A stretch of 64,000 nt of DNA from Chthonomonadales bacterium (GTDB taxonomy: Bacteria > Armatimonadota > Chthonomonadetes > Chthonomonadales > CAJBBX01), in the NCBI GenBank assembly GCA_012517255.1, contig JAAYVH010000159.1:2793-66792 (forward strand). Direction: 5' to 3'. Below, piece by piece: positions 3,046 through 41,944 of this stretch (position 1 is the first letter of the stretch; every line of letters starts with the position of its first letter). Below the pieces are notes generated by a model. It made no database searches and was not told the origin of the DNA. It saw only the letters and a list, made by a program, of their open reading frames with translations. The position numbers and the translations under genes were made by a program.

Positions 3046-3300
3046 TTCCGTAGCGCAACTCCCGTCGCCGTCTGAAGATACCGGAGTGATCCGGATCGCA
3101 CACTGCTGTAGCCCATGCCGGCGAGACGTCGAATCCACGGGTTGGCGGATCGCGCTCTCGATGCGGCGGGACGTCCAAGCTCAGATGCCGCGTGCGGAAA
3201 CAGCGCCTGCTCGACGACGGCACGGCAGGTATGCCCCGAGCGGCTCTCGAAACTACATACGGCACGTTCGGACATCTCATTGCGACAGTCGGAGGTAACG

Positions 3301-4395
3301 ATGCGATACGCTGTCATCATGGCCGGCGGCTCGGGCACGCGCCTGTGGCCCATGAGCCGGCGAAACACGCCCAAGCAGCTCATTCCGTTTCTGGATGGCC
3401 GCAGCCTCTTGCAGATGGCGTGGGAGCGGCTCATCGGTCTCATTGAGCCGGACGGCATCTGCGTCTGTGCTGCCGAGGCGCATCGAGAGCCCATCATGGT
3501 GGCTCTGCCCGAGCTCCGGTCCCATCGCTTCATCGGCGAGCCGATGGGACGGGATACGCTTAATGCCATCGGGCTGAGCGCCGTCGTGCTCTATCGTGAA
3601 GATCCTGACGCCGTCTTCGCGGCGGTCACGTCGGACCATATCATCGGGCCTCCGGAAGCGTTCCGCGAGTATCTGGATCGGGGCTTTGCGGCCGTCGAGG
3701 ACGATCCATGCGCGGTGGCAACGTTCGGGATTCGGCCGACGGCGGCGTCAACCGGGTTCGGCTACCTTGAGATCGGAGAGCCCGTCGGCGGGGGGCTGCG
3801 AACGGTGGTTCGCTTCCATGAGAAGCCTGAACTGCCGCGCGCGCAGGAGTTCTTCGAGGCCGGACCCGACCGGTTCCTGTGGAACAGCGGCATGTTCGTG
3901 TGGCGTGCCTCGACTCTGCTCGATTGCATCCGACGTTACGAGCCAGAGGTGCACTCGGGTCTCCTGCGGATTGCCGACGCTTGGGACTCCCCATCGCGCG
4001 ACGCGGTATTGCGTGAGACCTATCCGACCCTGCGCAAGATCAGCGTGGACTTTGCGGTCATGCAGCCCGCCGCGCAGGATCCGGCCGTTCGCGTGGTCGC
4101 GGTGCCGATGCGCCTGGAGTGGATGGATGTGGGCAACTGGTCTAGCTTCGCGCAGACGTGCCCGGCGGACGAAGCCGGCAATCGTCTGCATGCGGGACGC
4201 GCAATCCTGCAGGGCTGCCGCGAGACGCTCGTCGCATCCACCGATCCCGGCCATCTGATCGCCGCCATAGGATGCGAGGGCATGGTTATCGTGCACACGC
4301 CTGACGCAACGCTGATCTGCCCGGCGGATCGCGTCGAGGATGTGAAGACCATCGCCGGCAAGGTCCAGGAACGCTTCGGACACGAGGCGGTCTGA
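3301..4395 (+). CDS. manC: mannose-1-phosphate guanylyltransferase (GDP-mannose pyrophosphorylase)
   Basis: The N-terminus MRYAVIMAGGSGTRLWPMSRRNTPKQL is the nucleotidyltransferase signature of ManC. GGAGG lies 6 nt upstream of ATG 3301. The ORF-track start at 3115 is an upstream extension. Confidence 0.85.
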   Translation: MRYAVIMAGGSGTRLWPMSRRNTPKQLIPFLDGRSLLQMAWERLIGLIEPDGICVCAAEAHREPIMVALPELRSHRFIGEPMGRDTLNAIGLSAVVLYREDPDAVFAAVTSDHIIGPPEAFREYLDRGFAAVEDDPCAVATFGIRPTAASTGFGYLEIGEPVGGGLRTVVRFHEKPELPRAQEFFEAGPDRFLWNSGMFVWRASTLLDCIRRYEPEVHSGLLRIADAWDSPSRDAVLRETYPTLRKISVDFAVMQPAAQDPAVRVVAVPMRLEWMDVGNWSSFAQTCPADEAGNRLHAGRAILQGCRETLVASTDPGHLIAAIGCEGMVIVHTPDATLICPADRVEDVKTIAGKVQERFGHEAV

Positions 4396-4467
4396 AGCCC
4401 GTGAGCGGCGCCCGGGGTCGGTTCGGCTGTCACGGGTGCACCCTCAGGGCTTACAGGGAGGCGGCGC

Positions 4468-5241
4468 ATGAGAGTGTGCGGTGCGCAGATGGCGGTAACG
4501 CGCGATGTATCGGCCAATGTCGCGGCTCTTCTGCGCGCGATCGAGTATGCGGCTCAGGTACGGGCCGACGTGCTCCTGACGCCAGAGGGTTCGCTGAGCG
4601 GCTATGCTGCGCGGTTTCCGAGCCATCAGGTCGAGCAGGGCCTTGCACGGGTAACCGCGGCGGCAGCCGAGGCGCGCATCGCGCTGGCCCTCGGGACGTG
4701 CTTCGTCGAACCCGACGACGGACGGATATACAACGAGGTTCGGTTCTACGACCGGTGCGGCGCATTCCTGGGGTTCCATACCAAGACGCTTCTGTGCGGC
4801 ACGATCTTCGAACCCCATGAGGGCGAGATCAACGAGTTCGCAACGAGGCCCCTGCGCACGTTCGATCTGAATGGCGTAACCGTCGGCGCTCTTATCTGCA
4901 ACGACCTCTGGGCCAATCCCGGCTGCACTCCGATGGACGACCCGCACCTGACGCATCGTCTGGCGATGATGGGCGCGCGCATCATCTTCCATGCTGTCAA
5001 CGGAGGGCGGGACGGAGGCGAATGGTCGCAGATCGCATGGCGCTATCACGAGTCCAATCTGCAGATGCGCGCCCAGGCCTCGCGCCTGTGGATCGTGACG
5101 GTGGATAGCGCGCATCCGATCACCATGCCGTGTTCGGCGCCGTCGGGGGTAGTCGGGCCCGATGGGCGGTGGGTGGCGCGCGCGGAGCCTCAGGGGGAAC
5201 ACATGTTCGTCGCGGACATTCCGGTTGAGGTCCGACCGTGA
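4468..5241 (+). CDS. carbon-nitrogen hydrolase (nitrilase superfamily amidase)
   Basis: The Glu-Lys-Cys triad is present in the expected order and context: LLTPEGSLSGY, FHTKTLL, ALICNDLW. GGGAGG lies upstream of ATG 4468. Confidence 0.8.
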   Translation: MRVCGAQMAVTRDVSANVAALLRAIEYAAQVRADVLLTPEGSLSGYAARFPSHQVEQGLARVTAAAAEARIALALGTCFVEPDDGRIYNEVRFYDRCGAFLGFHTKTLLCGTIFEPHEGEINEFATRPLRTFDLNGVTVGALICNDLWANPGCTPMDDPHLTHRLAMMGARIIFHAVNGGRDGGEWSQIAWRYHESNLQMRAQASRLWIVTVDSAHPITMPCSAPSGVVGPDGRWVARAEPQGEHMFVADIPVEVRP

Positions 5242-7571
5242 CCGGAGGCATGACACGCGCGGGAATCGTTGCGACCGCAGCATTCGGCTTGCTGATGGTC
5301 GGCGCGGCGATGCCGCAGGATACGTCCGTCCGATTCGACGAGATCGTGTTCGCGGCGCGGGCGCCCATGGGGCCCCATTGGTACGAGAACTTCGGCTTCT
5401 ACAGCAACGAGCCGGAGAAGCCTGCGTTCACGAAGGGCGGCATGCTCTGTGTCGTCCGTCCGTCAACGGGGACCTTACGCGTCCTCCTCCATGACCCGAT
5501 CGGCGGCGTGCGCGATCCGCAGGTGAGCTACGACGGGCAGAAGATACTGTTCGCCTATCGCAAGGGGTCCGAACCCGCGTTCCATCTCTACGAGATCAAC
5601 GTGGATGGGTCGGGGCTGAAGCAGCTCACCGACGGCCCTGACGACGACATCGAGCCCTGCTACCTCCCCGATGGCGGCATTGTCTTCGTTTCATCGCGGT
5701 GCCATCGGTTCGTGAACTGCTGGTACACCCGCGTGGCGACGCTCTATCGGTGCGACGCGGACGGGTCGAACATTCGCATGCTGTCGCCAAGCATCGAGCA
5801 CGACAACACGCCGTGGGTCATGCCCGACGGGCGCATCCTCTACATGCGCTGGGAGTATGTGGATCGAAGCCAGGTCCACTATCATCATCTCTGGACCATG
5901 AACCCCGACGGCACCAACCAGACGATCTTCTATGGCAACCTGAACCCCGGCACGGCCATGCTCGATGCCAAGCCCATCCCCGGCAGCCGCAGGGTTGTGG
6001 CGTCCTTTTCCCCCGACCACGGTCTGCCGGAGCACATGGGCTTTGTGACCGTGGTGGATGCCGACAGGGGACCGGATGACCTGTCGGCTGCTCGCCGGGT
6101 TTCGCGGACGCCATGGTACAAGGATCCGTACCCGATCGGGAACGGGCTGTACCTCGCGGCGTTTCAGAAACGAATCGTTCGCCTCGACGATGATGGCGCC
6201 GAAACGACGCTCTACACCCTCCCGGGCGAATATGGCGCGATGGAATGCCAGGAGCCGCGGCCCATCGCGCCACGGCAGCGGGAGCCAGTCATCAGCTCGC
6301 GCGTGGACCTCGGTCGTGCCACGGGCACGCTCGCGCTGGAGGACATCCATACCGGGCGCAACATGGCGGGCGTCCGGCGCGGCGAGATCAAAGACATCCT
6401 GGTCTTCGAGCAGCTTCCCAAGCCCGCGAACTTCTCCGGCGGCATGGAACCGCTGTCCATCGGCGGCACCTTCACTCTCGCCCGCTGCCTCGGCACATTT
6501 CCCGTCGAAGCCGACGGTTCCGCGTATGTCGAGATCCCGGCCATGAAGCCGCTGTTCTTCGTCGCGCGTGACGCCGACGGCATGGCGGTCAAGCGCATGC
6601 AGAGCTGGATATCGGTTCAGCCCGGCGAACGGCTGAGCTGCGTGGGATGCCATGAGCAGCGCGTCAAGGCCCCCGCCAGCGCTCGCAATCCGATGGCCCT
6701 TCGTCGTGCGCCGAGCCGGATACAGCAGCTTGAGGGCTTGCCGGACGTGCCGGACTTCCCACGCGACATCCAGCCGATTCTGGATCGGCACTGCGTGGCC
6801 TGTCATTCACCCGCCAACATGCAGGCGCGAGTGGACCTATCGGGCGACCACACGCCGTTCTACTCCATGGCCTATGAGACGATCATCGGCAGACGGCTGA
6901 TCTCCGACGGGCGCAATCTGCCGCGCAGCAACTATGCCCCGCGGGCGATCGGCTCATCGGCAAGCAGGCTGCTCAAGCTCATGGATGGCTCCCACCACGG
7001 CGCAATGCCGACGCCGCGCGAGTTCCAGACCGTCCGCCTGTGGATCGAGGCGGGAGCAACCTACCCGGGCACCTACGCAGCGCTGGGTTCGGGCATGTAC
7101 GGCGTGGCCCTGCCGGTCGACCGCATGTTCACCCGATGCGGCCCGTGCCATGCGCGTCCTGACCCGAACGCGAATCCTCCCAACCAGACGCTCTTTTTCG
7201 GCCCGGGATCCCATGTCTGGCCGGGCGTGCTGTGCAACCTCACGCGACCGGAGCTCTCACGGCTGACGCTGGCTCCGCTGCGCAAAGAAGCCGGCGGGTG
7301 GGGTCTCTGCGGCGAAGGCGGGTTCCGCGATCGAGAGGACCCGCTCTTCCGTTCGATCCTGGCAGCGATACGGCAGGCGTCCGATGCCCTTCAGCGCGGG
7401 AAACGCTTTGACATGGCGGGCTTCCGGCCCAACGCTCATTACGTCCGAGAGATGCAGCGCTTCGGCATCCTCCCCGCTGGGATGCCGCCGGATGCCCCGC
7501 TCGATCCCTACAGGGCGGATCGAGCCTACTGGGACAGCTTCGCATACAGGCCCTCTGCCGCTCGCGACTGA
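5238..7571 (+). CDS. secreted PD40/TolB-like beta-propeller haem-c protein, hydrazine-synthase-alpha-related architecture (function unknown)
   Basis: Signal peptide, then propeller-like repeats (VSYDGQKILFAY, NVDGSGLKQLTDGPDDDIEPCYLPDGGIVFVS, NPDGTNQTIFYG). Three CXXCH motifs follow (CVGCH aa 468-472, CVACH 519-523, CGPCH 634-638). IQPILDRHCVACHS resembles planctomycete-type cytochrome c motifs. The GTG start overlaps the upstream stop (GTGA); an alternative ATG is at 5250. Confidence 0.6.
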   Translation: MTGGMTRAGIVATAAFGLLMVGAAMPQDTSVRFDEIVFAARAPMGPHWYENFGFYSNEPEKPAFTKGGMLCVVRPSTGTLRVLLHDPIGGVRDPQVSYDGQKILFAYRKGSEPAFHLYEINVDGSGLKQLTDGPDDDIEPCYLPDGGIVFVSSRCHRFVNCWYTRVATLYRCDADGSNIRMLSPSIEHDNTPWVMPDGRILYMRWEYVDRSQVHYHHLWTMNPDGTNQTIFYGNLNPGTAMLDAKPIPGSRRVVASFSPDHGLPEHMGFVTVVDADRGPDDLSAARRVSRTPWYKDPYPIGNGLYLAAFQKRIVRLDDDGAETTLYTLPGEYGAMECQEPRPIAPRQREPVISSRVDLGRATGTLALEDIHTGRNMAGVRRGEIKDILVFEQLPKPANFSGGMEPLSIGGTFTLARCLGTFPVEADGSAYVEIPAMKPLFFVARDADGMAVKRMQSWISVQPGERLSCVGCHEQRVKAPASARNPMALRRAPSRIQQLEGLPDVPDFPRDIQPILDRHCVACHSPANMQARVDLSGDHTPFYSMAYETIIGRRLISDGRNLPRSNYAPRAIGSSASRLLKLMDGSHHGAMPTPREFQTVRLWIEAGATYPGTYAALGSGMYGVALPVDRMFTRCGPCHARPDPNANPPNQTLFFGPGSHVWPGVLCNLTRPELSRLTLAPLRKEAGGWGLCGEGGFRDREDPLFRSILAAIRQASDALQRGKRFDMAGFRPNAHYVREMQRFGILPAGMPPDAPLDPYRADRAYWDSFAYRPSAARD

Positions 7572-7730
7572 CGCATCCGGGCGACAGCCATTTGCGACGT
7601 TGCAGGAAGATCGGGAGGAGAGCGCGCCGCGGAGCGCGAATAGTCACCCGGCACGTCTGTTGTTGTCGGGGGCAAGGCTCCTGACAACATGAGGCCGTGA
7701 GCCAAACCCGCCCTGCAGGAGGAAACCGCT

Positions 7731-9479
7731 ATGCGCGAGCGCCACAGTCCGAGGGGATTGCCCCGGTGTCAGGCCTTTCGGCCCCCTCTGGCGTATGCCC
7801 TCGTGAGTGCCCTTCTGGTGGCGATCGCCGTCGGAGCTTCCGCGCAGGAGATCTCCCGCGAGGATATGGACGCCTGCATGGCCTGTCACGCTGCCCCGAT
7901 GGGTGATGCCGCCGCGGTGAATCGGGACGCCCTGAAGATATCGCCCCACAAGGACCTGGCGTGCCAGGATTGCCACACTTCGATGACGGCGGCGCCGCAC
8001 ACGAAAGAGATGCTGGCCCAGAGGGCATCGTGCGGAACCTGCCATCCGGAGCCGCTCTCGGCGTACATGGACAGTGTGCACTCGCGGCCCGACAAAGTCG
8101 AGGGCGACCATCCGACGTGCCGATCGTGCCATGGACGCGGCGGCGATCCTCATGCCGTGGTCAAGCAAGCGTGGACGCGCCGGCAGACGACGGGCCTGTG
8201 CGCACGATGCCACAGCGAGAAGGCGCGCATGGCGCGCTACGGCGTGGATCCGGATGCTTCGCGCTCGTATAGCGACAGCTTCCATGGCAAGGCGCTCCTG
8301 CGGTTCAACCTCGTGAAGGCCGCAGGATGCGTAGACTGCCATAAGCAGCACGACGTCAAGTCGCCCGGCGACCCGACGGCGCCCACCAATCGTGCGAACG
8401 TTGCCGCGGTGTGCGGTCAGGACGGTTGCCACCCGGGAGCGAAGATGAACTTCGCCATGTCGGGGGCCAATCACCTGAAACTGAAACTCAAGGCCGTGCC
8501 TCTGCTCCGCCTCGAGGAGCTCTTTTTCCAGTGGCTCACCGCCGGCACTATGCTGTTCCTTATCGGCGGCATCGCGCTGGACCTGCGCACGCGGGTGTTC
8601 ACCAGGAAGCAGGTGCCCGCAGCGAGCCGCGTCGTGGCCGCGATCATCGCCGCCAGCTTCCTCGCGCTGGTCGCCTCGCTGGCCATGGCGGTGGCAGGCT
8701 TCGGACGACCGCGGTGGGTCGGGATCGCCGCCGTAATCCTCATGGCGCTTGCCGGCGTGGTCTGGGCAGCGGTTGGCCGTCGGGCGAAGCCATCATCGGG
8801 TCCTGAGAAGGAGTATCCGCGTCTGGACCTCGTGCACCGGCTGCAGCACATCCTGTTGTTTGTCAGCTTCATCGCGCTTGCCGTAACGGGGCTTCCCCTC
8901 CGATTCGCGCACCATCCCTGGCTCGTGGCGATGTATCAGGCCATGGGAGGCATTGGCGTCGCTCGCGGCATCCACCGCGTTGCGGCCGTCATGATGATCG
9001 CGGCCTGGATCTGGCACACCATCGACCTGCTCATACGCTGGAAGCGGGCGGGGTTCCGGTTCTCATCATGGAGCATGTTCCCGACGATGAAGGACGTCCG
9101 CGACTTTGTGCAGCTCAGCCGCTACTATCTGGGACTGTCGTCGGAGCCGCCGAAGTTCGACCGGTTCGAGTTTCGCCAGAAGTTCGACTACTTCGCGGTC
9201 TACTGGGGCATGCCCATTATGGTGTTCTCGGGGCTTGTGCTGTGGTTCCCGATCTTCTTCGGCAACATGCTCCCTGAGACAGGAGTGTCGGCGGCCTACA
9301 TTGCCCACAGCGATGAGGCCATCCTGGCGGTGCTGGCCATTGCCGTCTGGCATTTCTATAACGTCCACTTCAACCCGGGCGATTTCCCGATGAGCTTCGC
9401 ATGGCTCACCGGAAAGAAGACGCGAAGCCAGATGGAGCACGAGCACCCGCTGGAGTTGGAGCGGATCGAGCGGGGCTAG
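7731..9479 (+). CDS. membrane multihaem cytochrome c fused to an FdnI/HydC-like di-haem cytochrome b domain (CbcL-like quinol-linked electron-transfer protein)
   Basis: AGGAGG at 7717-7722 and a signal/anchor sequence. Six CXXCH motifs (Cys at aa 49, 78, 101, 130, 157, 200) plus one CX4CH (aa 228-234) and about 8 spare His residues. About 7 hydrophobic helices follow, the last four carrying His in HRLQHILLF, GIHRVAAV..WHT, YIAHSDEA and WHFYNVH. Confidence 0.75.
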   Translation: MRERHSPRGLPRCQAFRPPLAYALVSALLVAIAVGASAQEISREDMDACMACHAAPMGDAAAVNRDALKISPHKDLACQDCHTSMTAAPHTKEMLAQRASCGTCHPEPLSAYMDSVHSRPDKVEGDHPTCRSCHGRGGDPHAVVKQAWTRRQTTGLCARCHSEKARMARYGVDPDASRSYSDSFHGKALLRFNLVKAAGCVDCHKQHDVKSPGDPTAPTNRANVAAVCGQDGCHPGAKMNFAMSGANHLKLKLKAVPLLRLEELFFQWLTAGTMLFLIGGIALDLRTRVFTRKQVPAASRVVAAIIAASFLALVASLAMAVAGFGRPRWVGIAAVILMALAGVVWAAVGRRAKPSSGPEKEYPRLDLVHRLQHILLFVSFIALAVTGLPLRFAHHPWLVAMYQAMGGIGVARGIHRVAAVMMIAAWIWHTIDLLIRWKRAGFRFSSWSMFPTMKDVRDFVQLSRYYLGLSSEPPKFDRFEFRQKFDYFAVYWGMPIMVFSGLVLWFPIFFGNMLPETGVSAAYIAHSDEAILAVLAIAVWHFYNVHFNPGDFPMSFAWLTGKKTRSQMEHEHPLELERIERG

Positions 9480-9509: not shown

Positions 9510-12443
9510 CTATGTGTCCGACTGGCGGGCGGCTGGTCCGGAGCGTGTTAGCACGCCGAGAGGACTGGCGGTCCTGGTAGCCGTGCCTTCCCCGATCGTG
9601 AACCGGAAGGTGGCTCCCTTGCCGGGGGAGCCCTCAGCCCAGACGCGGCCGCCGTGCATTTCGACAGCGCGCCGAACGAATGCCAGGCTGAATCCCGTGC
9701 CCTCGATCTCGTCGGATGCTCGATATCGCCGGAAGACATCAAAGAGGGTGTGGGCATACTCCTGATCGAAGCCGACGCCGTTATCGCGGACGAAATAGGC
9801 TCCGTCTTCGTAGCCTATGTGGATCATGGCCATGGTCGCCCCGGCGGTTGCTTGCAGCGCGTTCTTGATCAGGTTCTGGAAGACCAACTGCAGCAGGCCG
9901 GGATCGGCGTCACATGGGGGCAGATCGTCCACCGTGATCGCGGCGGCATGGGGGAAGTCCGCGCGGAGGCTGCGAATGGCCTCGTGCGCGAGGTGCGTCG
10001 GGACGACCCTCCTCCGCCGGAGTTCCGATCTGCGGAGCCTGCCAAGGGCGACAAGCGCTTCGATGAGCGCCCCCATGCGCCTGGCGGCCATGCGCACGCG
10101 CTCTAGGTCCCGTCGGCCTTCAGCGGGCAGCAGCTCGCCATATTGCTCCATCACGGCGCATGTGAAGCCATGGGCTGCCCGGACAGGCGCCTTGAGATCG
10201 TGGCTCAAGGTGTACATGAAGGCAGCCATCTCCTCGCTCATCTGGACCAGCTCGGCGGTCCGTGCTTCCACCTTCTGTTCGAGATCGTGTCGGGCTTCTT
10301 CGAGTTGGGCCAGGAGGCGCGCCTTCTGGACGGCTACGGCAGACTGCTCGGCGAAGGAGAACAGGGCACGGACATCCTCGTCGGTAATCAGCCTGTTGGT
10401 GAGAAGGTTGTCCACCGCAATGGCTCCGAGGATGACGTCGCCCGCTCGCATCGGCACTACGGCGTGCGAGCGGACCCCGCGCATCGTCTCGGGAGTGTGC
10501 TCCGGCTGGAGAGCCGATCGGTTCTCGATGAGCGAGTACTCGATCTCGCCCCGGAGCACGCGGTGCAACGGTACGGGGCTCTCGTCGTCGAGCGGCAGCG
10601 ATCGCTCACCGAGATCTTCGAGGCGCCCCTGACGGTCGGTCCCCCAGGTACCCGTGATCATGCGCGTCTCATGGTCGTAGAGCCACACGCCTGCGCGATC
10701 GAACATGCCGCAATCCACGATGGCATTGCGCACCATGCGCATCATTACCCGCAGATCGGTCTGGGCGGCGCTCGCGGCGGCGACGCGGCCCAGCGCCTCC
10801 AGCGAAGACACTCGTTGCCGAAGTTCGGAGGCCATGCGAGCTGCGCGTACCGCAGCGGCAGCCTGTTCGGCGAACGGAAGAAGAAGCTGGATGTCGTCAT
10901 CTGAAATGGGGCGGTCAGACAGCGCGTTATCCACCGAGATGCAGCCGACAATCTGATCGCCTACTCGCATGGGCACGACCGCGTGCCAGCGCACCCCCTG
11001 CATCCACGGAGGGGTCAGCTCAGCTCCCAGCGCCTCGCGGTTCTCAAGCAGCGAATAGGGAATCCGCCCCGACACCACGAGATCGGACGGCATGCCCCTA
11101 TCGGGGTCTACGGTCTGCACGTTGCTCGAGATGTCCTCGAGGTTGCCTTGACGGTCGGTGCCCCAGGTACCCGTCAGCGTGTTGGCGCCGGGGTCGTAGA
11201 TGAACACCCCGGCACGATCGAACAGGCCCGAACCGACGATACCGTCTCGCACCAGTCGCATCATATCGCTCAGCTCGCTGTTGGCCGTTATTGCAGAGGC
11301 GATACGGCCCAGATGCTGAAGCTGCGATACACGCTCGCGCAACTGCCGCTGAAGGCGCGAGTTGTGGACGGCAAGGGCGGCATACTCCGCGAACGGCAGG
11401 AGAGCCGCCACGTCGTCTTCGTTGATCGGGGTGTCTGTGAGCAGATTGTCGCCGACAAGGACCCCGACGATCTCGCTGCCCACGCGCATCGGCAGCACGC
11501 AATGGTGCTTCACCCCGAACATGGGATCGTCGGGCGAGAGGCCATACCGCTCGGTGTGGTTCGTCTCAAGCGCATAGGGCATCTGTCCGACAAGGACCTG
11601 CCCTATGGGATCGTCGGGCCGGTCCGTCACCTGCAGCTCGCTGTCGTGCAGGCTCTGAGGCTGACCATCGCGACCGGTACCCCAGACCCCCTTGAACTTG
11701 CCTGAGCCGGGATCACGCAAGTAGATGCCGACACGGTCGAGCCGGCCCACCTCGATCACAGCGTCGCGTATTAGCCGCAGTACCTGATCGAGCTCAGCCT
11801 CCGAGACGATGATCTCGCCAAGGCGGGTGAGACGTCGCGCAATGTCCTGATGGCGCTCGCGCAGAGTTCTGACGCGCGCAGCCAGCAGCGCCACCGCGAT
11901 CCGGGGGACCCCTGCCTCCAGCAATGCGAGATCGTCGCCGGTGAGGGCGCGACGTGTCAGCAGATTGTCGGCCCAGAGGACGCCGATCAGCTCGTCGGCC
12001 AGCCTGATGGCTGCAATCAGGCACTCCTGTGAGCCATGCAGCGGATCATCGGTCGGGACCGCGAGCAAGGCGGACGCATCGGCGATGAGCGGGGACTCGC
12101 TCCCTTCGCCGACCACGGCGTAGGCCGGATGATGGCAGGTCTTTGCCGCCGCCCGGACATCGCCGGCAAGGTCGTAGGGCTGGCCCTGGTGATCCACGCC
12201 CGACCGATCCCACAGAAGGTCTGCGCGCTTGTCATACAGGAGGATACCGACGCGATCGAAGCCTCCCGCCGCCTGGAAAGCATCGCGCGTCATGCTGAGC
12301 ACGTTCCCTAGAGGCACGCCTGAGCCGACGGCTACGCTGATATGCGCCAGTTGCCGCTCTAGTTCGCCAACCCTGCGTGTTCGTTGTGGTGGTCCGCTGC
12401 CCGGGATCTCGTCGTTGGGGGGCATGGCCGGAAGATACCTCAC
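9510..12443 (-). CDS. cytoplasmic sensor histidine kinase with four tandem GAF domains
   Basis: A GAF-like unit recurs four times (FDRVGILLYD, LDRVGIYLRD, FDRAGVFIYD, FDRAGVWLYD, each followed by ..VPMR.G....G....DN.L). Next come a coiled coil, the HisKA H-box FMYTLSHDLKAPVRA, and HATPase motifs (NLIKNALQAT, RDNGVGF, GTGFSLAFVRRAVEMHGGRVW). No TM segment and no receiver domain. Confidence 0.85.
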   Translation of the reverse strand: MRYLPAMPPNDEIPGSGPPQRTRRVGELERQLAHISVAVGSGVPLGNVLSMTRDAFQAAGGFDRVGILLYDKRADLLWDRSGVDHQGQPYDLAGDVRAAAKTCHHPAYAVVGEGSESPLIADASALLAVPTDDPLHGSQECLIAAIRLADELIGVLWADNLLTRRALTGDDLALLEAGVPRIAVALLAARVRTLRERHQDIARRLTRLGEIIVSEAELDQVLRLIRDAVIEVGRLDRVGIYLRDPGSGKFKGVWGTGRDGQPQSLHDSELQVTDRPDDPIGQVLVGQMPYALETNHTERYGLSPDDPMFGVKHHCVLPMRVGSEIVGVLVGDNLLTDTPINEDDVAALLPFAEYAALAVHNSRLQRQLRERVSQLQHLGRIASAITANSELSDMMRLVRDGIVGSGLFDRAGVFIYDPGANTLTGTWGTDRQGNLEDISSNVQTVDPDRGMPSDLVVSGRIPYSLLENREALGAELTPPWMQGVRWHAVVPMRVGDQIVGCISVDNALSDRPISDDDIQLLLPFAEQAAAAVRAARMASELRQRVSSLEALGRVAAASAAQTDLRVMMRMVRNAIVDCGMFDRAGVWLYDHETRMITGTWGTDRQGRLEDLGERSLPLDDESPVPLHRVLRGEIEYSLIENRSALQPEHTPETMRGVRSHAVVPMRAGDVILGAIAVDNLLTNRLITDEDVRALFSFAEQSAVAVQKARLLAQLEEARHDLEQKVEARTAELVQMSEEMAAFMYTLSHDLKAPVRAAHGFTCAVMEQYGELLPAEGRRDLERVRMAARRMGALIEALVALGRLRRSELRRRRVVPTHLAHEAIRSLRADFPHAAAITVDDLPPCDADPGLLQLVFQNLIKNALQATAGATMAMIHIGYEDGAYFVRDNGVGFDQEYAHTLFDVFRRYRASDEIEGTGFSLAFVRRAVEMHGGRVWAEGSPGKGATFRFTIGEGTATRTASPLGVLTRSGPAARQSDT

Positions 12444-12559
12444 TGGGATTGTGCCCGCTCGGACGACGGAGCGTCAATGCCATGACCGCGAGATTCGCGC
12501 GCCCTGCGGTCAGCAAGAAGGACAACCGCGTGTCGGCGTACAACCTACTTCCAGAGGTT

Positions 12560-15500
12560 ATGCCCATGACATCGCTGCGGCCGTTCATGCTGATTTTGCT
12601 CGCGTTAGCTGCACTCTGGCCAACCCGCGAGCCGCGCGGCGATCTGGACGCCGCCGGTCAGGAGCGCCAGCTCGACGCGTTAGTAACGTTGGACCGCTGG
12701 GCTCTGAGCGGTCCGCCCATCGCTGACAGTCTCGGGCGCAGTGCGCTGGCCGTCAGCGTGAAAGACCCGCCAAACGGACAGAGCGCCTCGATCGAGCTTA
12801 CCGCCGATTTCGCCCAACCCGATCGAAGGTGGGTCTCTGTTGACTATGAGGGCCCGCCGATCCCGGGCCGCTGTCGCGAGATCTCCATGATGGCGTGGAC
12901 CGACAGTCCGGGCGTCAGGCTCGAGATGGTCCTGGAGGATTCCGCGGGCGGATGGTTCACCCGTGAGCTGTCGCTTCCGAGCGCGGCAGCGTGGCATCGC
13001 CTGCGCGCGGAGGTCGGTTCGGGACGGGATTGGAGGCCGTGGCTTCGTCGCGGCGAGGCTGCCAGACCGATCGAACAGCCGGTGGCTCTGCGTCGGGTAC
13101 GGCTGCTCAGGCCCGAGAGCAACGCGCATGCGACGGTCGTCTGTCGCCTCGCCGACCTGCGCGCACAGAGCGATCAGTCTGGCTTCGACATGCTGGAGGC
13201 GCAGGTCTCAAGCGGAAGGGCCGGCAACGTCTTTGTCAGCGGCGAAACCCCATCGCTGCAGGTTCGCATGGTCAACCGCGCCGACAGACCCGTGCGCATT
13301 GCGCTCCGTCTGACATACGCGGCCTTCGATGCCGAGGTCGGCTCTGCCCAGGGGCCGCCGCCGATCACAATGACCCGCAGGGCAGCGCGTGTGGACCTCG
13401 GATCCGTCGCCGTTGCGCCCGGGGAAACGTACACGCGCCGCGTCCGGTGTCCCACCTCGATCTACGGGGTCCACCGTGTTGTCCTAAGCGCCGCAGATGG
13501 CGCACGGGAGCGGCGCTGGCATGGAAGCTTCGCCTATGTTCGCGCGTCAGAGCCTGGCAGGAGGAGCGCCTCCCGTCGGAGGCCGCCATGGAGCGCCGGG
13601 AGCCGTTTCGGCATCTGCGGAAACATCGGAGGGTTCAGGGACGACCTCGAGGCTGTGGCCAAACGGCTCAATGGGATTGCGGGAGCCGGATGGTCGAGAG
13701 TGGGTCTGGCATGGCAGCAGGTCAACGGAGCCCCGAGAGTGTGGGCGTGGGATCCGCCGGCGCTGGCAGAGGGCCCGGTAGGCGCCGCGCTTCGCTCGGC
13801 AAGAACGCCGCTGCGCGCGCCTCACGATGCATCCCAGAGCTGTCCCGATGAGGTCACCCTGGCGTTCTGGGCGCGCATCTCTGGCCCGAACGGCCTCGAT
13901 CAGGTCGCCGTGCGCAAGTGGGGACCGGGCGATCGCCGGAACTATGGAGCTTATTTCGACCGAGAGACCGGGGCGTTCACCTTCTCGGCGGGCTACGAGA
14001 ATCGGCGCGGCGTCATCGCCAACATCAGCGCAGGGGTCAGCGCCTATGATGGCCAGTGGCACCACTACGCCGCCACCTATTCGCGCCACATTCGCTCGGT
14101 CTGCCTCTACGTAGACGGGACGCTGTTGACTGCGGCCAACCATGATGGCGGACGGCTGCGCACAACTACAGCAGATCTTATGCTGGCACAGGACTTCGCG
14201 GGCGATCTCGACGAGGTCATGGTCTATCGCCGTGCGCTCGGACCTGCCGACATAGCGGCGCTCGTGCGCAAGGCAGATCCGCCCAGGGACGGCCTCGTCG
14301 CCTGGTACGCATTCAATGACCCCGCTCGGATCGGCCGGAATACCGCCGGCAACGCCCCCAGCGTGACCGACCTTGTGCGGGACGAGCCGGATGGCGTGAA
14401 GTTGGCTCGCGAAGCCGCATCCGAGGGAATGGCTACGCTGGCCATCCTTGGCTTTCCGCCTGCCTGGGCGTCATCGCAGCCCGATGCCGCGCGTTTCTGG
14501 CTGCATGAACCAGAGGACAACGCATGGACGGGCTATGTCCAGCAGGTCACGCGGCAGTACAAGGATCTGATAGCGCACTGGGAGATCTGGAACGAGCCCA
14601 ACACCGACGCATTCTGGCAGCCCAGGCCGGATCCCGAGCGGTACCTTCGCACCCTCAAGTCGGCCTATGGCGCGGCGAAGCGGGGCAATCCTCGATGCAC
14701 GGTGCTGATGCCTGGCCTGAGGGGACCGTCGGGCAAGAGGTCGCCGGAAGCCCGTGCTTACCTCGACCGTCTGCTGGGCCTTGGCGCGGCACGCTATTGC
14801 GATGCGATATCGGTGCATCCCTATCGTGACGGATCGCCGGAAGAGACCGATCTCGTCGGCGATCTCAAATGGATCGCGCAACGATCTGCTGTTAGCGGCG
14901 CCAGGCGCCCCCTCTGGCTCACCGAGATGGGCTGGCCAACGCACACCCCCGACGGAGTGACTCCGCGCACGCAAGCCGCGTATCTTGCGCGAGCCTATCT
15001 CCTCGCCGCCTCAACGGGGCTCGTCGAGCGCATGTTCTGGTACAGGCTGCATGATTCCGGCCCCGATCGAACCTACGCCGACGACAACTACGGCCTCTGC
15101 GAAGAGGACATGACCCCAAAACCGGCGTTCTTCGCCCACCGAACCATGGCAGTGCTCCTCGGCGACGCGCGTCCAGACGGCGAGTTAAGCGTGGGAGGCG
15201 GCGTGAGAGCTCTCTGCTTCCGCTCTCCCCAAGAAAGGTTCGCCGCCATCTGGCATCCGTCGGGCAGGACATGGGTCGCTGTCCATGTCGGCAAACAGCG
15301 CGTAACCATGACCGACCTCATGGGAAACAGCGCCTCTGTCGCGAGCCCTCACGGCGTGTTGCTTCTTGAAGCCGACGACATGCCGAAGTTCGTGCGAGGA
15401 CTATCAGCGACAGTCAAGGCTCAGAGCGGACTCATCGCCACGGTCGGCCCGCTTCCGGCATTGACGTCGCAAGGCCCGGATGCGGTGTCGCGCCAGAGCC

Positions 15501-15775
15501 CGCCCAGCGATGTGCGCGTGCGGATCCGCAACCCGTATCCGGCGCCCGTTGCGGCGGCGGTCACAGCAACGTGCGGACGCGGAGTTGAGATCATGAGCCC
15601 CGCAACGAAGCTGTCCATCGCTGCCAGCGGAGTTGCGGAGTTCCGGCTCAGGGTCCGCGCGGCCCGTGGGGCGGAGCCCGGGCAGGTCCCGCTCACGATC
15701 TCGGCGCGACTGCCGGGAGGGACCGTAACCATGCACATCGAACTGACGGTGCGATCGGCAGGCCCACGGTCATGA
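12560..15775 (+). CDS. secreted multidomain LamG (concanavalin-A-like) + clan GH-A glycoside hydrolase protein
   Basis: Signal peptide MPMTSLRPFMLILLALAALW. LamG-like block (GQWHHYAATY...LYVDG...GDLDEVMVYRRAL). GH-A catalytic motifs HWEIWNEPN (acid/base) and LWLTEMGWPT (nucleophile). The ORF track starts at 12377, which would overlap the divergent kinase gene. Confidence 0.6.
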   Translation: MPMTSLRPFMLILLALAALWPTREPRGDLDAAGQERQLDALVTLDRWALSGPPIADSLGRSALAVSVKDPPNGQSASIELTADFAQPDRRWVSVDYEGPPIPGRCREISMMAWTDSPGVRLEMVLEDSAGGWFTRELSLPSAAAWHRLRAEVGSGRDWRPWLRRGEAARPIEQPVALRRVRLLRPESNAHATVVCRLADLRAQSDQSGFDMLEAQVSSGRAGNVFVSGETPSLQVRMVNRADRPVRIALRLTYAAFDAEVGSAQGPPPITMTRRAARVDLGSVAVAPGETYTRRVRCPTSIYGVHRVVLSAADGARERRWHGSFAYVRASEPGRRSASRRRPPWSAGSRFGICGNIGGFRDDLEAVAKRLNGIAGAGWSRVGLAWQQVNGAPRVWAWDPPALAEGPVGAALRSARTPLRAPHDASQSCPDEVTLAFWARISGPNGLDQVAVRKWGPGDRRNYGAYFDRETGAFTFSAGYENRRGVIANISAGVSAYDGQWHHYAATYSRHIRSVCLYVDGTLLTAANHDGGRLRTTTADLMLAQDFAGDLDEVMVYRRALGPADIAALVRKADPPRDGLVAWYAFNDPARIGRNTAGNAPSVTDLVRDEPDGVKLAREAASEGMATLAILGFPPAWASSQPDAARFWLHEPEDNAWTGYVQQVTRQYKDLIAHWEIWNEPNTDAFWQPRPDPERYLRTLKSAYGAAKRGNPRCTVLMPGLRGPSGKRSPEARAYLDRLLGLGAARYCDAISVHPYRDGSPEETDLVGDLKWIAQRSAVSGARRPLWLTEMGWPTHTPDGVTPRTQAAYLARAYLLAASTGLVERMFWYRLHDSGPDRTYADDNYGLCEEDMTPKPAFFAHRTMAVLLGDARPDGELSVGGGVRALCFRSPQERFAAIWHPSGRTWVAVHVGKQRVTMTDLMGNSASVASPHGVLLLEADDMPKFVRGLSATVKAQSGLIATVGPLPALTSQGPDAVSRQSPPSDVRVRIRNPYPAPVAAAVTATCGRGVEIMSPATKLSIAASGVAEFRLRVRAARGAEPGQVPLTISARLPGGTVTMHIELTVRSAGPRS

Positions 15776-19889: not shown

Positions 19890-20790
19890 AGGGCATGGGG
19901 ACGTCGGCGCCTCCTACGCGACGGATGGGAGCGTCGAGCTCGTCGAACGCCTCGTCGGCCAGACGCGCCGCCACCTCGGCAGCAAAGCCGACGTTGAGCC
20001 ACTCCTCCTGAACGACGACGACTCGATGGGTGCGCGCCACCGAAGCGATGATCGTCTCCATGTCGAGGGGAACGAGCGTGCGCAGATCCACGACTTCACA
20101 GGACACGCCGGACGCTTCGAGCTTCTCGGCGGCCTTGAGGCACTTGCCCACCATAAGCGAGTAGGCGACGAGGGTCACATCCGTACCCTCACGGCGTATC
20201 TCGGCTCGACCGAACGGCACGGTGAAGTCCGGATCGTCGGGAACCTCGCCTCGCTGAGCGTACAGCCCTGCGTGCTCCATGAAGATGACCGGGCTGTTGT
20301 CGCGAATGGCGGTCTTCAAGAGACCCTTGGCGTCGGCCGGCGTGAACGGCAGCACAACCTTGAACCCGGGAGTGTGGGCATACCACGATTCGAGGCTCTG
20401 GGAGTGCTGAGCAGACAGTTGGTTGCCCGTTCCGGCAGGCCCGCGAAACACGGCCGGACATGTCACTCTCCCGCTCGACATGTAGGTGATCTTGGCGGCG
20501 TGGTTCACGAGCTGGTCCATAGCCGACAGAGCGAACGACCAGGTCATGAACTCGGCGATGGGCCGCAGTCCCGCCATGGCGGCGCCGGTTGCCAGGCCTG
20601 CGATGGCTATCTCGGAAATCGGCGTATCCACAACCCGCATGGGCCCGAACCGAGACAGCAGTCCTTCGGTGACACGGAATGTGCCCTGATACTGGCCGAC
20701 CTCTTCGCCGCAGACGAAGACCGTGGGGTCGCGCTCCATCTCCTCAGTCATGGCGAGGCGCAACGCCTCGGAGTATCGCATCAATGGCAT
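19813..20790 (-). CDS. pdhB: pyruvate/2-oxoacid dehydrogenase E1 component, beta subunit
   Basis: The protein starts MPLMRYSEALRLAMTEEMERDPTVFVCGEEVG 8 nt downstream of the pdhA stop. It looks like a typical transketolase-like beta subunit throughout. The ORF-track start at 20943 is an upstream extension. Confidence 0.9.
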   Translation of the reverse strand: MPLMRYSEALRLAMTEEMERDPTVFVCGEEVGQYQGTFRVTEGLLSRFGPMRVVDTPISEIAIAGLATGAAMAGLRPIAEFMTWSFALSAMDQLVNHAAKITYMSSGRVTCPAVFRGPAGTGNQLSAQHSQSLESWYAHTPGFKVVLPFTPADAKGLLKTAIRDNSPVIFMEHAGLYAQRGEVPDDPDFTVPFGRAEIRREGTDVTLVAYSLMVGKCLKAAEKLEASGVSCEVVDLRTLVPLDMETIIASVARTHRVVVVQEEWLNVGFAAEVAARLADEAFDELDAPIRRVGGADVPMPYARELEQAAIPGEDAIIAAVRSIVD

Positions 20791-20797
20791 GGCCGCA

Positions 20798-21808
20798 TCA
20801 TCCTTCCGCGTACACGTGTTCGTAAAGGGACTCCAATGGCGGAGGCGGGCTCTCTTCGGCGAATCGGATCGCGTCCTCGATCGTGGCGCGGATTTCGGAC
20901 TCCATAGCCTCATCGTCGGCGTCGGTGAGCGCCCCGTGCGCAACCAGCAGGTTGCGGAGCTTGATCAGGGGATCGTGCTCTTTCCACGCAGCGATCTCAT
21001 CTTCGGTTCGATAGAAGCGCTGCTGCTGGGCATTGTCGGCGACGCCATGGCCCACGAAGCGGTAGGTGCGCATCTCGAGGAACTGCGCCCGTACCTCCTC
21101 TCGAGCCCGGGCAATGGCGCGTCCGGCAGCATCGCGCACGGCCAGGATGTCCATACCGTCCACGGTCTCAGCGTCGATGCCGTGGGCCTGCGCCTTCAAG
21201 ACCATCTCCGGTTGGCCGGTCGAGCGCTCGACCGAGGTGCCCATGGCGTAGCCGTTGTTCTCCAGGATGTAGACGATGGGCAGTCCATAGAGCCCTGCCA
21301 TGTTGAGCGCCTCATGCACGCCCCCCTGGTTCATGGCGCCGTCGCCGAAGTAGCAGAGGCAGACGTTCTTGTCGCCGCGGTACTTGATCGCGAAGCCGAC
21401 ACCCACGGATACGGGCACCGGTCCGCCCACGATGCCGTCGCCTCCCAGGAAGCCGTTGGCGGGATCAATGAGGTGCATGGAGCCGCCCTTGCCGCCGGCG
21501 CATCCTGTGGCTTTCCCCATGAGCTCCGCCATGATCGCTCGCGGAGATGTGCCGCAGGCGATGGCGTGGGCGTGATCCCGATAGGTGCACAGCACGTAGT
21601 CGCCCTTGATGAGCTGAGGTATCACCCCCGCGACGAGAGCTTCCTGACCGTCGTACCGGTGCAGGTAGCCCCCGATCTTGCCTTCCCGGTACTTGCGGTA
21701 CAGGCTCTCCTCAAAGCGGCGCATCAGCAGCATGAGCCGATAGGTGGCAAGAAGGTCGGCGTCTCCCTGATCGGAGGCAGCGCTGGCTGCGACAGACTGT
21801 ATGGACAT
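20798..21808 (-). CDS. pdhA: pyruvate/2-oxoacid dehydrogenase E1 component, alpha subunit
   Basis: LMRRFEE, YRDH and the TPP-binding motif GDGAMNQG...ENNGYAMGT are present. Confidence 0.9.
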   Translation of the reverse strand: MSIQSVAASAASDQGDADLLATYRLMLLMRRFEESLYRKYREGKIGGYLHRYDGQEALVAGVIPQLIKGDYVLCTYRDHAHAIACGTSPRAIMAELMGKATGCAGGKGGSMHLIDPANGFLGGDGIVGGPVPVSVGVGFAIKYRGDKNVCLCYFGDGAMNQGGVHEALNMAGLYGLPIVYILENNGYAMGTSVERSTGQPEMVLKAQAHGIDAETVDGMDILAVRDAAGRAIARAREEVRAQFLEMRTYRFVGHGVADNAQQQRFYRTEDEIAAWKEHDPLIKLRNLLVAHGALTDADDEAMESEIRATIEDAIRFAEESPPPPLESLYEHVYAEG

Positions 21809-21826
21809 GATGAACGATATCTCCTC

Positions 21827-24800: not shown

Positions 24801-25447
24801 CCGAGCCACTCCACGCGCATCGGGGCCTGCTCGCCGGCGCCGAAGACATCCACGATGCCGCCTCGCCGCGCGAACTGACCGGGCGCTGTGACCGTCGTCG
24901 TGCGCGCGTAGCCCAGTCTGACGAGCCTCCGGGCCAGTTCGCCGATATCCGTCCGCGAACCCACGGTCAGCTCGATGGCGGCGTTCATGGTCTCGGCCGG
25001 AGGTCCGACCCGCTGAAGAACGCTCTCAGGCGTCGCGACCACAATGGCGGGGATCGGCGATGCCAGCGCCGCCAGCGCCCCCATCCGCTCGCTCAGGGCG
25101 ACGTGGTCCACGGTACTGCGCAGCACGGGGTCACGATCCTGGGCGGGGAGGGCATAGACGCGATCCGGGTCGGCGGCGAGCTGGCGTAGATCGTCGCACA
25201 GACGGTCCACCTGATCCTGCTGATAGGTCACGACGAGCGTGGGACCGGGCTGACGCAGCGCAATGGCAGCTGCGACGAGGCTCCGGGCAACGCCGGCGAG
25301 GCCGTCTATTCTGAGTCGCCCTCCCCTGCACTGCAGGGACTGGATCTGCGAGGTTAGTTCGGGGACACGGTCAACGTGCCGAGCAAGCTGATGGAGGCCC
25401 ATTCTGTTGGAAGGCCCGCGAATGGCCGTCGCGGGAAGCGACGGCAT
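21827..25447 (-). CDS. mfd: transcription-repair coupling factor
   Basis: 1206 aa. UvrB-homology N-terminus, then a CarD-like block (GDYVVHVAYGIGIY), superfamily-2 helicase motifs (GDVGFGKTEVA, DEEQRFG, TATPIPRT) and a TRG region. Confidence 0.95.
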   Translation of the reverse strand: MPSLPATAIRGPSNRMGLHQLARHVDRVPELTSQIQSLQCRGGRLRIDGLAGVARSLVAAAIALRQPGPTLVVTYQQDQVDRLCDDLRQLAADPDRVYALPAQDRDPVLRSTVDHVALSERMGALAALASPIPAIVVATPESVLQRVGPPAETMNAAIELTVGSRTDIGELARRLVRLGYARTTTVTAPGQFARRGGIVDVFGAGEQAPMRVEWLGDEIESVRTFDAGTQRSTGHLERARILPVHPVILTPELGARAEPLIRSAWDLRRRALMAAGQKDAAETLDDRVGGDLAMLTAGDYFDHVGEYLPFLVPEPICALDYLIHGWTGVTGDDAAPAPLVVLDDPAQMEAHWTRMLEDRAQADERLADQGTAILPSEAGLADLDETSLDRLAAMPAAVQFSPLGAAWQRAPATATLSVHSAAMESFRSRTDFLKDEVTRWLEQGAFCATVTGQPQRTREVLAELGVPLAEPSADGAGSAHAGGMVVLEGRLRQGVKFDEARLYIITDHELYGTARPVTARRGATGGIPISTLLDLREGDYVVHVAYGIGIYRGLVKRTIDGAEKDYIFIQYAGPDRLYVPADQIDRVQRYVGAEGARPTVNRMLGTDWQRTTRRVKEQARDLARELVELYAAREAADRPVYGDDSPWQAEMEEAFPYEETPGQLRAIADVKADLSQNKPADRLICGDVGFGKTEVAIRAAFKVVESGKQVAVLCPTTVLAAQHHTTFTERLAAYPIRVELLSRFRSRAEQKQTIGNLKAGATDIVIGTHRLLSRDVEFKSLGMVIIDEEQRFGVAQKERLKQLRRSVDVLTLTATPIPRTLSMALSGLRELSVIEDPPGGRLPIVTHVREYDDDLVRDAISRELARGGQVYYVHNRVETIEQVAMRVQRLVPDARLSIGHGQMSEDELERVMHRFYLQECDVLVCTTIIENGLDIPNVNTIIVENADRMGLAQLYQLRGRVGRSSRQAYAYLLVPKGRLLTEESEQRLFAIREFTALGSGYQIAMRDLEIRGAGNLLGSEQSGAMSSVGFDMYCRLLAQAVAETRGVEYTDETLPEADLPLTAHIPVDYIPNEAERIFFYKRMSGVTSLKDVEELLDEFHDRYGDPPRPVWNALEVLRIRLLAKQAGISSVRHENRNVWLKFAPGVRLTARALNLLTHMFKDTRFTADSVVLRLSGPNVVAEVEDILKVLDNALRDGAARPPGAKA

Positions 25448-32184: not shown

Positions 32185-32230
32185 ACTCCTCCGTGCCGCG
32201 GCTCGATGCCTGCGGACGTACGCCGGAACA

Positions 32231-40052: not shown

Positions 40053-40216
40053 GGAGCACCTCCGCGTAACATTGCGCTGGACGACCGCACGGCCTGAGCC
40101 GCGTGCGCGGTGGTCGCGACGGCCGTCGCTCACCCTCTATGATACAGCGGGTCGGCGGGATGTGCACGTCGGATGGGGCGACCAGTCGGCTGTAGGACTA
40201 CGCCCCTTGCAGCGGA

Positions 40217-41839: not shown

Positions 41840-41944
41840 TGTCGAAAGATCAATGGATCGTACGCTCGTACTCCTGCTCCCTCTGGGAGGGTCTTCCCCT
41901 TACCCCCATATGGCGGCTATCGGTCCGTCGCCTCCGTCGCTATC

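Follow-up and report, generated by a model that had tools for sequence, protein, structure and literature searches.

Two adjacent genes for c-type cytochromes, ORF1 and ORF2, lie on the same strand of a 67.7-kb contig from a metagenome-assembled genome (MAG) of a Chthonomonadales bacterium (Armatimonadota), of which a stretch of 64 kb, here called the window, was analysed. For both genes the start is identical to that in the NCBI record, NLH99704.1 (GX446_09480) for ORF1 and NLH99705.1 (GX446_09485) for ORF2, and both records are labelled 'hypothetical protein'. A first-pass annotation made from the sequence had joined the two products into a quinol-linked periplasmic enzyme, consisting of a protein like HzsA, the alpha subunit of hydrazine synthase (HZS), and a membrane cytochrome. 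The domain reading of each protein held, whereas their union in one joint module did not, since the pairing is not conserved. We propose, with a probability of about 0.72, that ORF1 and ORF2 are independent cytochrome genes of known kinds which are neighbours only in this Chthonomonadales species. They would not constitute a newly found conserved enzyme system, because both belong to known families and stand side by side in a single species. The genes and the spacer between them are:

5238 to 7571, + strand: ORF1, 777 amino acids with a GTG start (ORF list and exact NCBI record NLH99704.1), a periplasmic tri-haem c 'HzsA-related' protein
7572 to 7730, + strand: intergenic spacer of 159 bp, with a Shine-Dalgarno sequence at 7718-7723 and a hairpin without a T-run at 7661-7689
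7731 to 9479, + strand: ORF2, 582 amino acids with its ATG at 7731 (ORF list and 100% match to GX446_09485), a CbcL-type hepta-haem c/di-haem b fusion

Within ORF1 the following features were distinguished:

5238 to 5312, + strand: signal peptide, about amino acids 1-25, with a positive start, a hydrophobic core and the ending ...VGAA/MPQ, read from the translation with an inferred cleavage site
5334 to 6272, + strand: TolB/PD40-like beta-propeller, about amino acids 33-345, all-beta in the structural model, with TolB matches by phmmer and Foldseek (about 1e-11)
6381 to 6656, + strand: HZS_alpha middle domain (Pfam PF18582), amino acids 382-473, with the full profile covered
6639 to 6653, + strand: haem-1 motif CVGCH, amino acids 468-472, at the end of the HZS_alpha domain, counterpart of HzsA haem alpha-I and aligned with HzsA CSGCH
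6792 to 6806, + strand: haem-2 motif CVACH, amino acids 519-523, within FPRDIQPILDRHCVACH, which aligns with HzsA FRRDIQPILDAKCAMCH, counterpart of HzsA haem alpha-II
7137 to 7151, + strand: haem-3 motif CGPCH, amino acids 634-638, found by motif scan and extra relative to HzsA

The signal peptide and the PD40/TolB-like propeller that had been read from the letters are borne out by the translation, by the TolB matches and by an AlphaFold2 (AF2) model built with 26 homologues (pLDDT 79.7, pTM 0.79), in which the N-terminus forms a lone helix (amino acids 3-23) and the propeller is all-beta; PD40 itself stays below threshold in Pfam (19.3 bits against a cut-off of 20.9). The HZS_alpha domain is found with an E-value of 3.5e-20 and 72.8 bits (cut-off 26.6), and PSCyt1, a family that had been put forward for comparison, is not among the Pfam matches of ORF1 at E ≤ 0.01. 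A motif scan places the three CXXCH motifs exactly at amino acids 468, 519 and 634, as originally located. Their residues (C468/C471/H472, C519/C522/H523 and C634/C637/H638) are invariant in the 26 homologues and so the motifs are not there by chance. The 26-sequence alignment also reveals invariant clusters in the propeller, namely R154-C155-R157-N160-C161-W162, R204-W205-E206-Y207-D209-R210, H216-H217 and H261-E265-H266, the first two of which may be written as the motifs RCxRxVNCW (154-162) and RWEYVDR (204-210). The invariance of haem and propeller residues together would therefore suggest an enzyme rather than a simple electron carrier.

The best sequence match of ORF1 in the PDB is HzsA of Kuenenia stuttgartiensis (PDB 5C2V chain A; phmmer E 1.5e-15), followed by TolB proteins at about 0.006. 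The alignment consists of four collinear stretches that take in the propeller, the haem-bearing middle domain including its motif and the second-haem segment FxRDIQPILDxxCxxCH, and it ends at amino acid 551. When the model of ORF1 was compared with known structures by Foldseek, the two top matches were HzsA chains (E 9.4e-31, TM-scores 0.61 and 0.62 over 763 columns at 20% identity), about twenty orders of magnitude ahead of TolB (about 1e-11) and S9-peptidase propellers. Hence, given these sequence and structure matches, the HzsA-like architecture is real, and the three-domain build proposed at the outset was recovered by Pfam, phmmer and Foldseek alike: ORF1 has the same order of propeller, HZS_alpha haem middle domain and C-terminal haem domain, and both haem motifs of HzsA align with its haems 1 and 2.

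The likeness does not extend to the residues that make HzsA a catalyst. ORF1 is only about 20% identical to HzsA and scores 74.5 bits with the NCBIfam equivalog NF052339, the cut-off of which is 800. Tyr591, the iron ligand of haem alpha-I located four positions after the haem-binding histidine of HzsA (C-S-G-C-H587-Y-G-S-Y591), is replaced by valine in ORF1 (CVGCHEQRV, with H472), and this position is variable across the consensus of the ORF1 family in the 26-sequence alignment. Cys303 of HzsA (YGNCDG), a ligand of the zinc whose site also includes the CXXCH histidine His587, corresponds to Leu235 in ORF1 (YGNLNP). ORF1 moreover carries a third haem motif, whereas HzsA is described with two haems (PMC12758564), and no hzsB or hzsC gene, HzsBC fusion, hdh or hao gene lies near ORF1 within the 64-kb window. 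Because the catalytic residues of HzsA are missing, ORF1 is, judged by its sequence, not a hydrazine synthase. In the non-anammox homologues studied by Hagglund et al. 2025 the same residues are lost, and those authors infer an inability to make hydrazine (PMC12758564).

ORF1 belongs to a very large family that already bears a name, and in this respect the novelty implied by the first-pass annotation was overstated. A word-indexed search gave more than 7,300 proteins at E ≤ 1e-5, and an exhaustive search among representatives of clusters formed at 50% identity gave 1,692 with E ≤ 1e-30 and 7,688 with E ≤ 1e-10. Each of the top 120 matches extends over about 95% of ORF1; identity is 74-76% for the three closest, one of which is annotated as Armatimonadetes bacterium, and 56-65% for the others. 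The named matches span Planctomycetota, Verrucomicrobiota and Armatimonadota with about 58% identity across phyla, and several carry the NCBI name 'HzsA-related protein', two of them (P0022 and P0046) sharing 58-59% identity with ORF1 across 95% of the sequence. ORF1 belongs to this family along its full length: it is 56-60% identical to hundreds of proteins, named members among them, shares their three invariant haem motifs and has PF18582 above its cut-off. Many of the cluster representatives have N-terminal extensions of 200-400 amino acids. Some members begin with a carbohydrate-binding domain of the galactose-binding-like F5_F8_type_C or NPCBM type (P0248, P0255 and the ORF at 12257-15073 of locus L086); six of the eight long members scanned contain no recognisable carbohydrate module, and most of the extensions have no Pfam match.

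Homologues with the HZS_alpha domain have been discussed by Hagglund et al. 2025 (PMC12758564) and by Dalcin Martins et al. 2023 (PMC10732223). ORF1 lacks the catalytic residues of HzsA, as the authors of the former report for their homologues. It differs from those homologues in coming from Armatimonadota, a phylum unmentioned in that paper, and in belonging to a tri-haem orthogroup, whereas the proteins described there have one or two haem sites; the family found here is also far larger than the 'few homologs' of that account. Our literature searches found no functional study of any member of the HzsA-related family.

ORF2 combines a periplasmic haem domain with a membrane domain, and its features are:

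7875 to 8474, + strand: periplasmic multihaem domain, amino acids 49-248, with six CXXCH motifs and CGQDGCH; Cytochrome_C7 and Paired_CXXCH_1 above their cut-offs
8499 to 8783, + strand: three extra transmembrane helices, amino acids 257-290, 297-322 and 327-351, long helices in the AF2 model that join the haem domain to the cytochrome b domain, where the latter would start on the cytoplasmic side
8823 to 9368, + strand: four-helix di-haem-b domain like FdnI and HydC, amino acids 365-546, with the ligands His373, His415, His526 and His541

The count of six CXXCH motifs and one CX4CH motif with histidines to spare proved accurate. The CXXCH motifs begin at amino acids 49, 78, 101, 130, 157 and 200 and the CX4CH motif occupies 228-234. 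All seven are invariant in 24 homologues, hence not due to chance, and so are seven further histidines (amino acids 73, 90, 117, 141, 185, 207 and 248), which would be enough for bis-His ligation of all seven c haems. Beyond the haem domain, the AF2 model (pLDDT 71.8) has three plus four transmembrane helices, in agreement with the approximately seven predicted initially. FdnI has its N-terminus on the cytoplasmic side, and an odd number of extra helices in ORF2 fits this topology. Ni_hydr_CYTB, one of the anticipated families, matches amino acids 365-544 in Pfam with 39.1 bits (E 8.9e-10), above its cut-off of 30.1. The sole significant Foldseek match of the ORF2 model is the gamma subunit of Escherichia coli formate dehydrogenase-N, FdnI (PDB 1KQF chain C; E 4e-4, target TM-score 0.73), and His373, His415, His526 and His541 of ORF2 align with its haem ligands His18, His57, His155 and His169. 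Conservation of the four putative b-haem ligands had been named as a check, and all four are invariant in the 24 homologues.

ORF2 therefore shares with FdnI the four-helix fold and all four haem-b histidines. It differs in scoring only 46.8 bits (E 3.4e-12) with the NCBIfam model of FdnI, TIGR01583, the cut-off of which is 115.85, the decahaem families being likewise sub-threshold; in having no FdnG or FdnH genes beside it; and in carrying, within the same polypeptide, a hepta-haem c domain plus three additional helices. Many ORF2 homologues are named 'formate dehydrogenase subunit gamma' or 'cytochrome b subunit of formate dehydrogenase' by JGI. These names look like a carry-over at the level of the domain, because the proteins are multihaem fusions and no FdnG/H genes accompany ORF2 in the window, and labels of 'formate dehydrogenase gamma subunit' on ORF2 homologues are best read as domain-level only.

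An architectural parallel is found in CbcL of Geobacter sulfurreducens, an inner-membrane oxidoreductase between quinol and periplasmic cytochromes whose b domain reportedly belongs to the HydC/FdnI family. Like CbcL, ORF2 unites in one polypeptide a periplasmic bis-His-type multihaem c domain and a membrane di-haem-b domain, an arrangement already known. In CbcL the c haems, all bis-His, number nine and the di-haem-b domain is built of six helices (PMC9129911; PMC13591261), whereas ORF2 has seven c haems and seven transmembrane helices, so that the two are likened by architecture and not by orthology to GSU0274. Relatives of ORF2 were found at 228 genome loci in many phyla, the closest homologues being mostly from Armatimonadota, and no Brocadiia sequence occurs among the best 80 of the 228. 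Loci of the ORF2 family lie amid other multihaem cytochromes in 61 of 81 cases. The Chthonomonadales gene differs from CbcL in standing alone: beside the Chthonomonadales orthologues of ORF2 (65-80% identity) no neighbouring cytochrome was found.

The evidence that separates the two genes comes from their positions in other genomes. The ORF2-anchored set comprised the best 80 of the 228 genome loci with flanks of up to 10 kb, 71 of them with at least 2.5 kb upstream, and the ORF1-anchored set comprised 86 loci, 85 of them non-self and 59 with at least 2 kb downstream. A tblastn search with ORF1 gave no relative at any of the 80 ORF2-anchored loci, the sole match being a separately fetched contig, 99% identical, of the same species. 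The reciprocal search with ORF2 gave none at the 85 non-self ORF1-anchored loci, with a same-species contig as the only match. Adjacency of ORF1 and ORF2 is seen in one species only, in the window and in two contigs 99% identical to it. As co-localisation fails in both directions, a conserved two-gene module is rejected, and with it the expectation of above-chance co-localisation of the two families in other genomes. Of the genomes that carry both orthologues, the two nearest (74-79% identity) have them on separate contigs among unrelated neighbours. GCA_964417805.1 has its ORF2 orthologue (79%) on a contig of 42 kb, flanked by a cold-shock gene, a cellulase and the ATP synthase operon, and its ORF1 orthologue (76%) on another contig, adjoining an ORF of 124 amino acids and a sulfatase. 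The Chthonomonas calidirosea MAG GCA_020722705.1 carries the ORF1 orthologue (74%) on contig 92, with a rhamnosidase on one side and a sulfatase on the other, and the ORF2 orthologue (79%) on contig 30. The other flanking genes (CN_hydrolase, ManC-like and GAF kinase) were also considered as companions of ORF1 or ORF2 and rejected, as relatives show no synteny.

The spacer between the genes was analysed separately. The strong Shine-Dalgarno sequence noticed before ORF2 is GGAGGA at 7718-7723, 7 nt 5′ of the ATG at 7731, and the gap of 159 bp was likewise correct. A simple scan of the spacer, centred on sigma-70 and proteobacteria and perhaps ill suited to this phylum, detected neither a promoter-like nor a terminator-like site. 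The hairpin at 7661-7689 has the arms TGTTGTCGGGGGC and GCTCCTGACAACA and no T-run, and could be a protein-binding inverted repeat or a product of chance. The spacer (7572-7730) has no Rfam match, and the z-score of its predicted RNA fold (−0.98) is not significant. Compared with the regions 5′ of ORF2 orthologues in search of a conserved leader belonging to ORF2, it gave one marginal match of 42 nt (71%, E 0.007 in a tiny search space) in a Chthonomonas calidirosea MAG and none with the other orthologues.

Beyond ORF1 and ORF2, the window holds an unrelated housekeeping mixture that includes a ManC-like transferase, CN_hydrolase, a GAF kinase, alcohol dehydrogenase, MurB, enolase and a subtilase. 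Apart from these two, none of its ORFs contained two or more CXXCH motifs in a scan of them all; an hzsB/C-like gene is therefore absent, and the statement that the locus contains neither hzsB nor hzsC and is not anammox stands. ORF1 is by the same motif scan the sole c-type cytochrome gene besides ORF2. The ORF at 40196-41968, with one CXXCH, was considered as an HzsBC-like gene and rejected, since it has no Pfam match. According to Pfam, the immediate neighbours of the pair encode a CN_hydrolase and a GAF histidine kinase. The CN_hydrolase (nitrilase-superfamily) gene at 4468-5241 overlaps with its stop the GTG start of ORF1 by 4 bp (5238-5241). This layout is typical of translational coupling, yet the two products should occupy different compartments, and the adjacency is absent at all other ORF1 loci examined. 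ORF2 is followed by genes for a multi-GAF histidine kinase (9510-12443, − strand) and a Laminin_G_3/glycosyl-hydrolase-like protein of 1132 amino acids (12377-15775, + strand); their predicted 5′ ends on opposite strands overlap by 67 bp and therefore at least one start codon is probably mis-set. Among three further ORFs (20723-25189, + strand; 29110-32385, − strand; 33312-35303, − strand), two are large (1488 and 1091 amino acids) without Pfam match at E ≤ 1e-5 and represent putative genes, and the third encodes a full-length DUF5693 protein (E 1.5e-136).

Elsewhere, the ORF1 orthologues have no constant company. When crude ORF calls from the 86 ORF1 loci were clustered, no conserved neighbour family appeared in more than eight. 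A further cluster that seemed to emerge probably represents antisense ORFs of the ORF1 homologues, the genomes being GC-rich and the gene caller crude. Sulfatase and GFO_IDH_MocA genes occur at 7-8 of the 86 loci each, about 1% of the ORFs called. Both families are very abundant in PVC genomes, and the figures, which are raw frequencies, are not treated as enrichment. A second HzsA-like paralogue, 28-37% identical, is present in 14 of the 86 loci. Clustered paralogues are seen in L126, with four copies (3280-5529, 6681-8603, 10001-12268 and 13226-15343), and in L086, L088, L096, L099 and others; clusters of this kind point to repeated local duplication in Planctomycetota and Verrucomicrobiota. 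At five of 85 loci (about 6%), a gene for a propeller/di-haem fusion like HzsB-HzsC accompanies a tri-haem ORF1 orthologue, in L110 at a distance of about 2 kb and at the other four loci directly beside it:

L098, 1837-3960: HzsBC-like fusion
L099, 12382-14334: HzsBC-like fusion
L110, 8342-10285: HzsBC-like fusion
L123, 5061-7064: HzsBC-like fusion
L143, 383-2329: HzsBC-like fusion

The fusion resembles both 5c2v_B (1e-34) and 5c2v_C (3e-25) and scores 172-181 bits with NCBIfam hydrazine_BC (cut-off 1250). A second alpha-like paralogue, di-haem or incomplete, is also found at L099, L110 and L123. The five loci agree with the co-localisation of alpha and beta-gamma genes outside the anammox bacteria reported by Hagglund et al. 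2025 (PMC12758564). A minority of the ORF1 orthogroup keeps an HZS-like gene organisation, whereas most members, including this ORF1, are orphans.

These loci raise an alternative in which ORF1 would be the alpha-type subunit of an HZS-like alpha/beta-gamma complex, the HzsBC-like fusion being encoded elsewhere in a scattered genome and ORF2 being either irrelevant or an upstream feeder of electrons. The resemblance of the fusion to both HZS chains and to hydrazine_BC, the published co-localisation and the scattering of functionally related genes in Chthonomonas genomes (PMC4959169) are consistent with such a complex. We regard it as unlikely nonetheless, as no HzsBC-like gene is located within the 64-kb window, about 94% of the loci with ORF1 orthologues lack one nearby, and at three of the five loci the beta-gamma protein may in truth be partnered by the second alpha-like paralogue.

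A dedicated two-gene respiratory module would resemble HZS alpha plus an electron transfer module without beta and gamma subunits: ORF2 would exchange electrons with quinol or quinone and pass them through its seven c haems to haems 3 and 2 of ORF1 and from there to a catalytic haem 1. A precedent for it is the HZS cluster of anammox bacteria with its electron transfer module (kuste2855-2856), where an HzsA-type gene likewise adjoins a membrane cytochrome thought to join the quinone pool to the enzyme on the periplasmic side. The architecture of kuste2856 is FdnI-like. The cluster differs from the present locus in that beta and gamma subunits are missing here, the adjacency is confined to one species, and Brocadiia are absent from the best 80 of the 228 ORF2 relatives.

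Several observations favour this module and weigh against the independence of the two genes. They are co-directional and 159 bp apart, with a strong Shine-Dalgarno sequence and no terminator in the simple scan, so that co-transcription is possible; no c-type cytochrome gene besides these two lies in the window; in other phyla cytochrome partners usually adjoin genes of the ORF2 family (the 61 of 81 loci above); and anammox HZS clusters reported with a quinone-linked electron transfer module (kuste2855-6) provide a precedent. Both proteins are present in both related genomes checked, and co-occurrence at the level of the genome is therefore possible. In addition, Chthonomonas genomes are described as non-operonic with related genes scattered (PMC4959169), for which reason missing synteny is weaker evidence against coupling in Chthonomonadales; for the same reason, adjacency is also weaker evidence in its favour. 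Against the module stand the absence of the pairing from all 80 and 85 non-self loci and the nearest orthologues being unlinked on different contigs. The distributions of the families also differ, with thousands of ORF1 orthologues in Planctomycetota and Verrucomicrobiota while the closest ORF2 homologues are mostly from Armatimonadota, and the gene whose stop overlaps the start of ORF1 is that of an unrelated cytoplasmic CN_hydrolase and not ORF2. Taken together, a dedicated module appears rather improbable.

There is a slim chance that a recent rearrangement put an orphan tri-haem HzsA-related enzyme upstream of a stand-alone CbcL-like cytochrome and thereby created a working quinone-coupled periplasmic module. 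If true, the wiring of 'HZS plus electron transfer module' known from anammox bacteria would have been re-invented independently without beta and gamma subunits, and the locus would be the simplest natural system for finding the substrate of the HzsA-related family, be it a small nitrogen-oxygen compound as in HZS or a carbohydrate-derived one, as the fusions with binding modules hint.

The family might, lastly, act on carbohydrates or their derivatives as a propeller dehydrogenase or oxidase with a built-in cytochrome wire, the electrons leaving via membrane cytochromes such as ORF2. A comparable layout would be that of the fungal pyranose dehydrogenases, which combine a pyrroloquinoline quinone (PQQ) propeller, a cytochrome and a carbohydrate-binding module. 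Although F5_F8_type_C or NPCBM domains precede some members, several loci neighbour sulfatases, a rhamnosidase, GH10, GFO_IDH_MocA oxidoreductases and MFS and SBP transporters, and the host lineage has been described as scavenging carbohydrates (PMC4959169), this function is very improbable for a family in which no cofactor or sugar-binding site was identified, six of the eight long members scanned lack a recognisable carbohydrate module, and the occurrence of sulfatase and GFO_IDH_MocA genes is not treated as enrichment.

We favour the view of ORF1 and ORF2 as independent cytochrome genes. ORF1 would be an orphan secreted enzyme composed of a six-blade-type propeller, the HZS_alpha haem domain and two further c-haem domains. 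Haem 1, at the interface between propeller and middle domain and with ordinary ligation by His472, would most likely be the reactive centre, catalytic or facing the substrate, and the invariant Arg, His, Glu and Cys residues of the propeller would surround it. Haems 2 and 3 would conduct electrons between haem 1 and a redox partner in the periplasm. ORF2, judging from its conserved haem-binding residues and its fold, would be an inner-membrane quinone/quinol:cytochrome c oxidoreductase of the CbcL/FdnI type. The two b haems in its four-helix bundle would exchange electrons with the quinone pool, and its seven bis-His c haems would carry electrons to or from periplasmic cytochromes, the direction and the partners being conjectural. 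ORF2 may serve ORF1 among other partners in this organism, and a functional electron link between the two is possible but unsupported; the evidence is against ORF2 being a dedicated, co-inherited subunit of the ORF1 enzyme. The pair should consequently not be annotated as a hydrazine-synthase-like respiratory module.

Since the CbcL-like neighbour is a coincidence of position in one species, the window provides no conserved partner through which the function of the HzsA-related family could be tested. The family has thousands of members in three phyla, three invariant haems and many invariant propeller residues. To this family, which is much larger than the recent literature suggests, the window adds a member from Armatimonadota.

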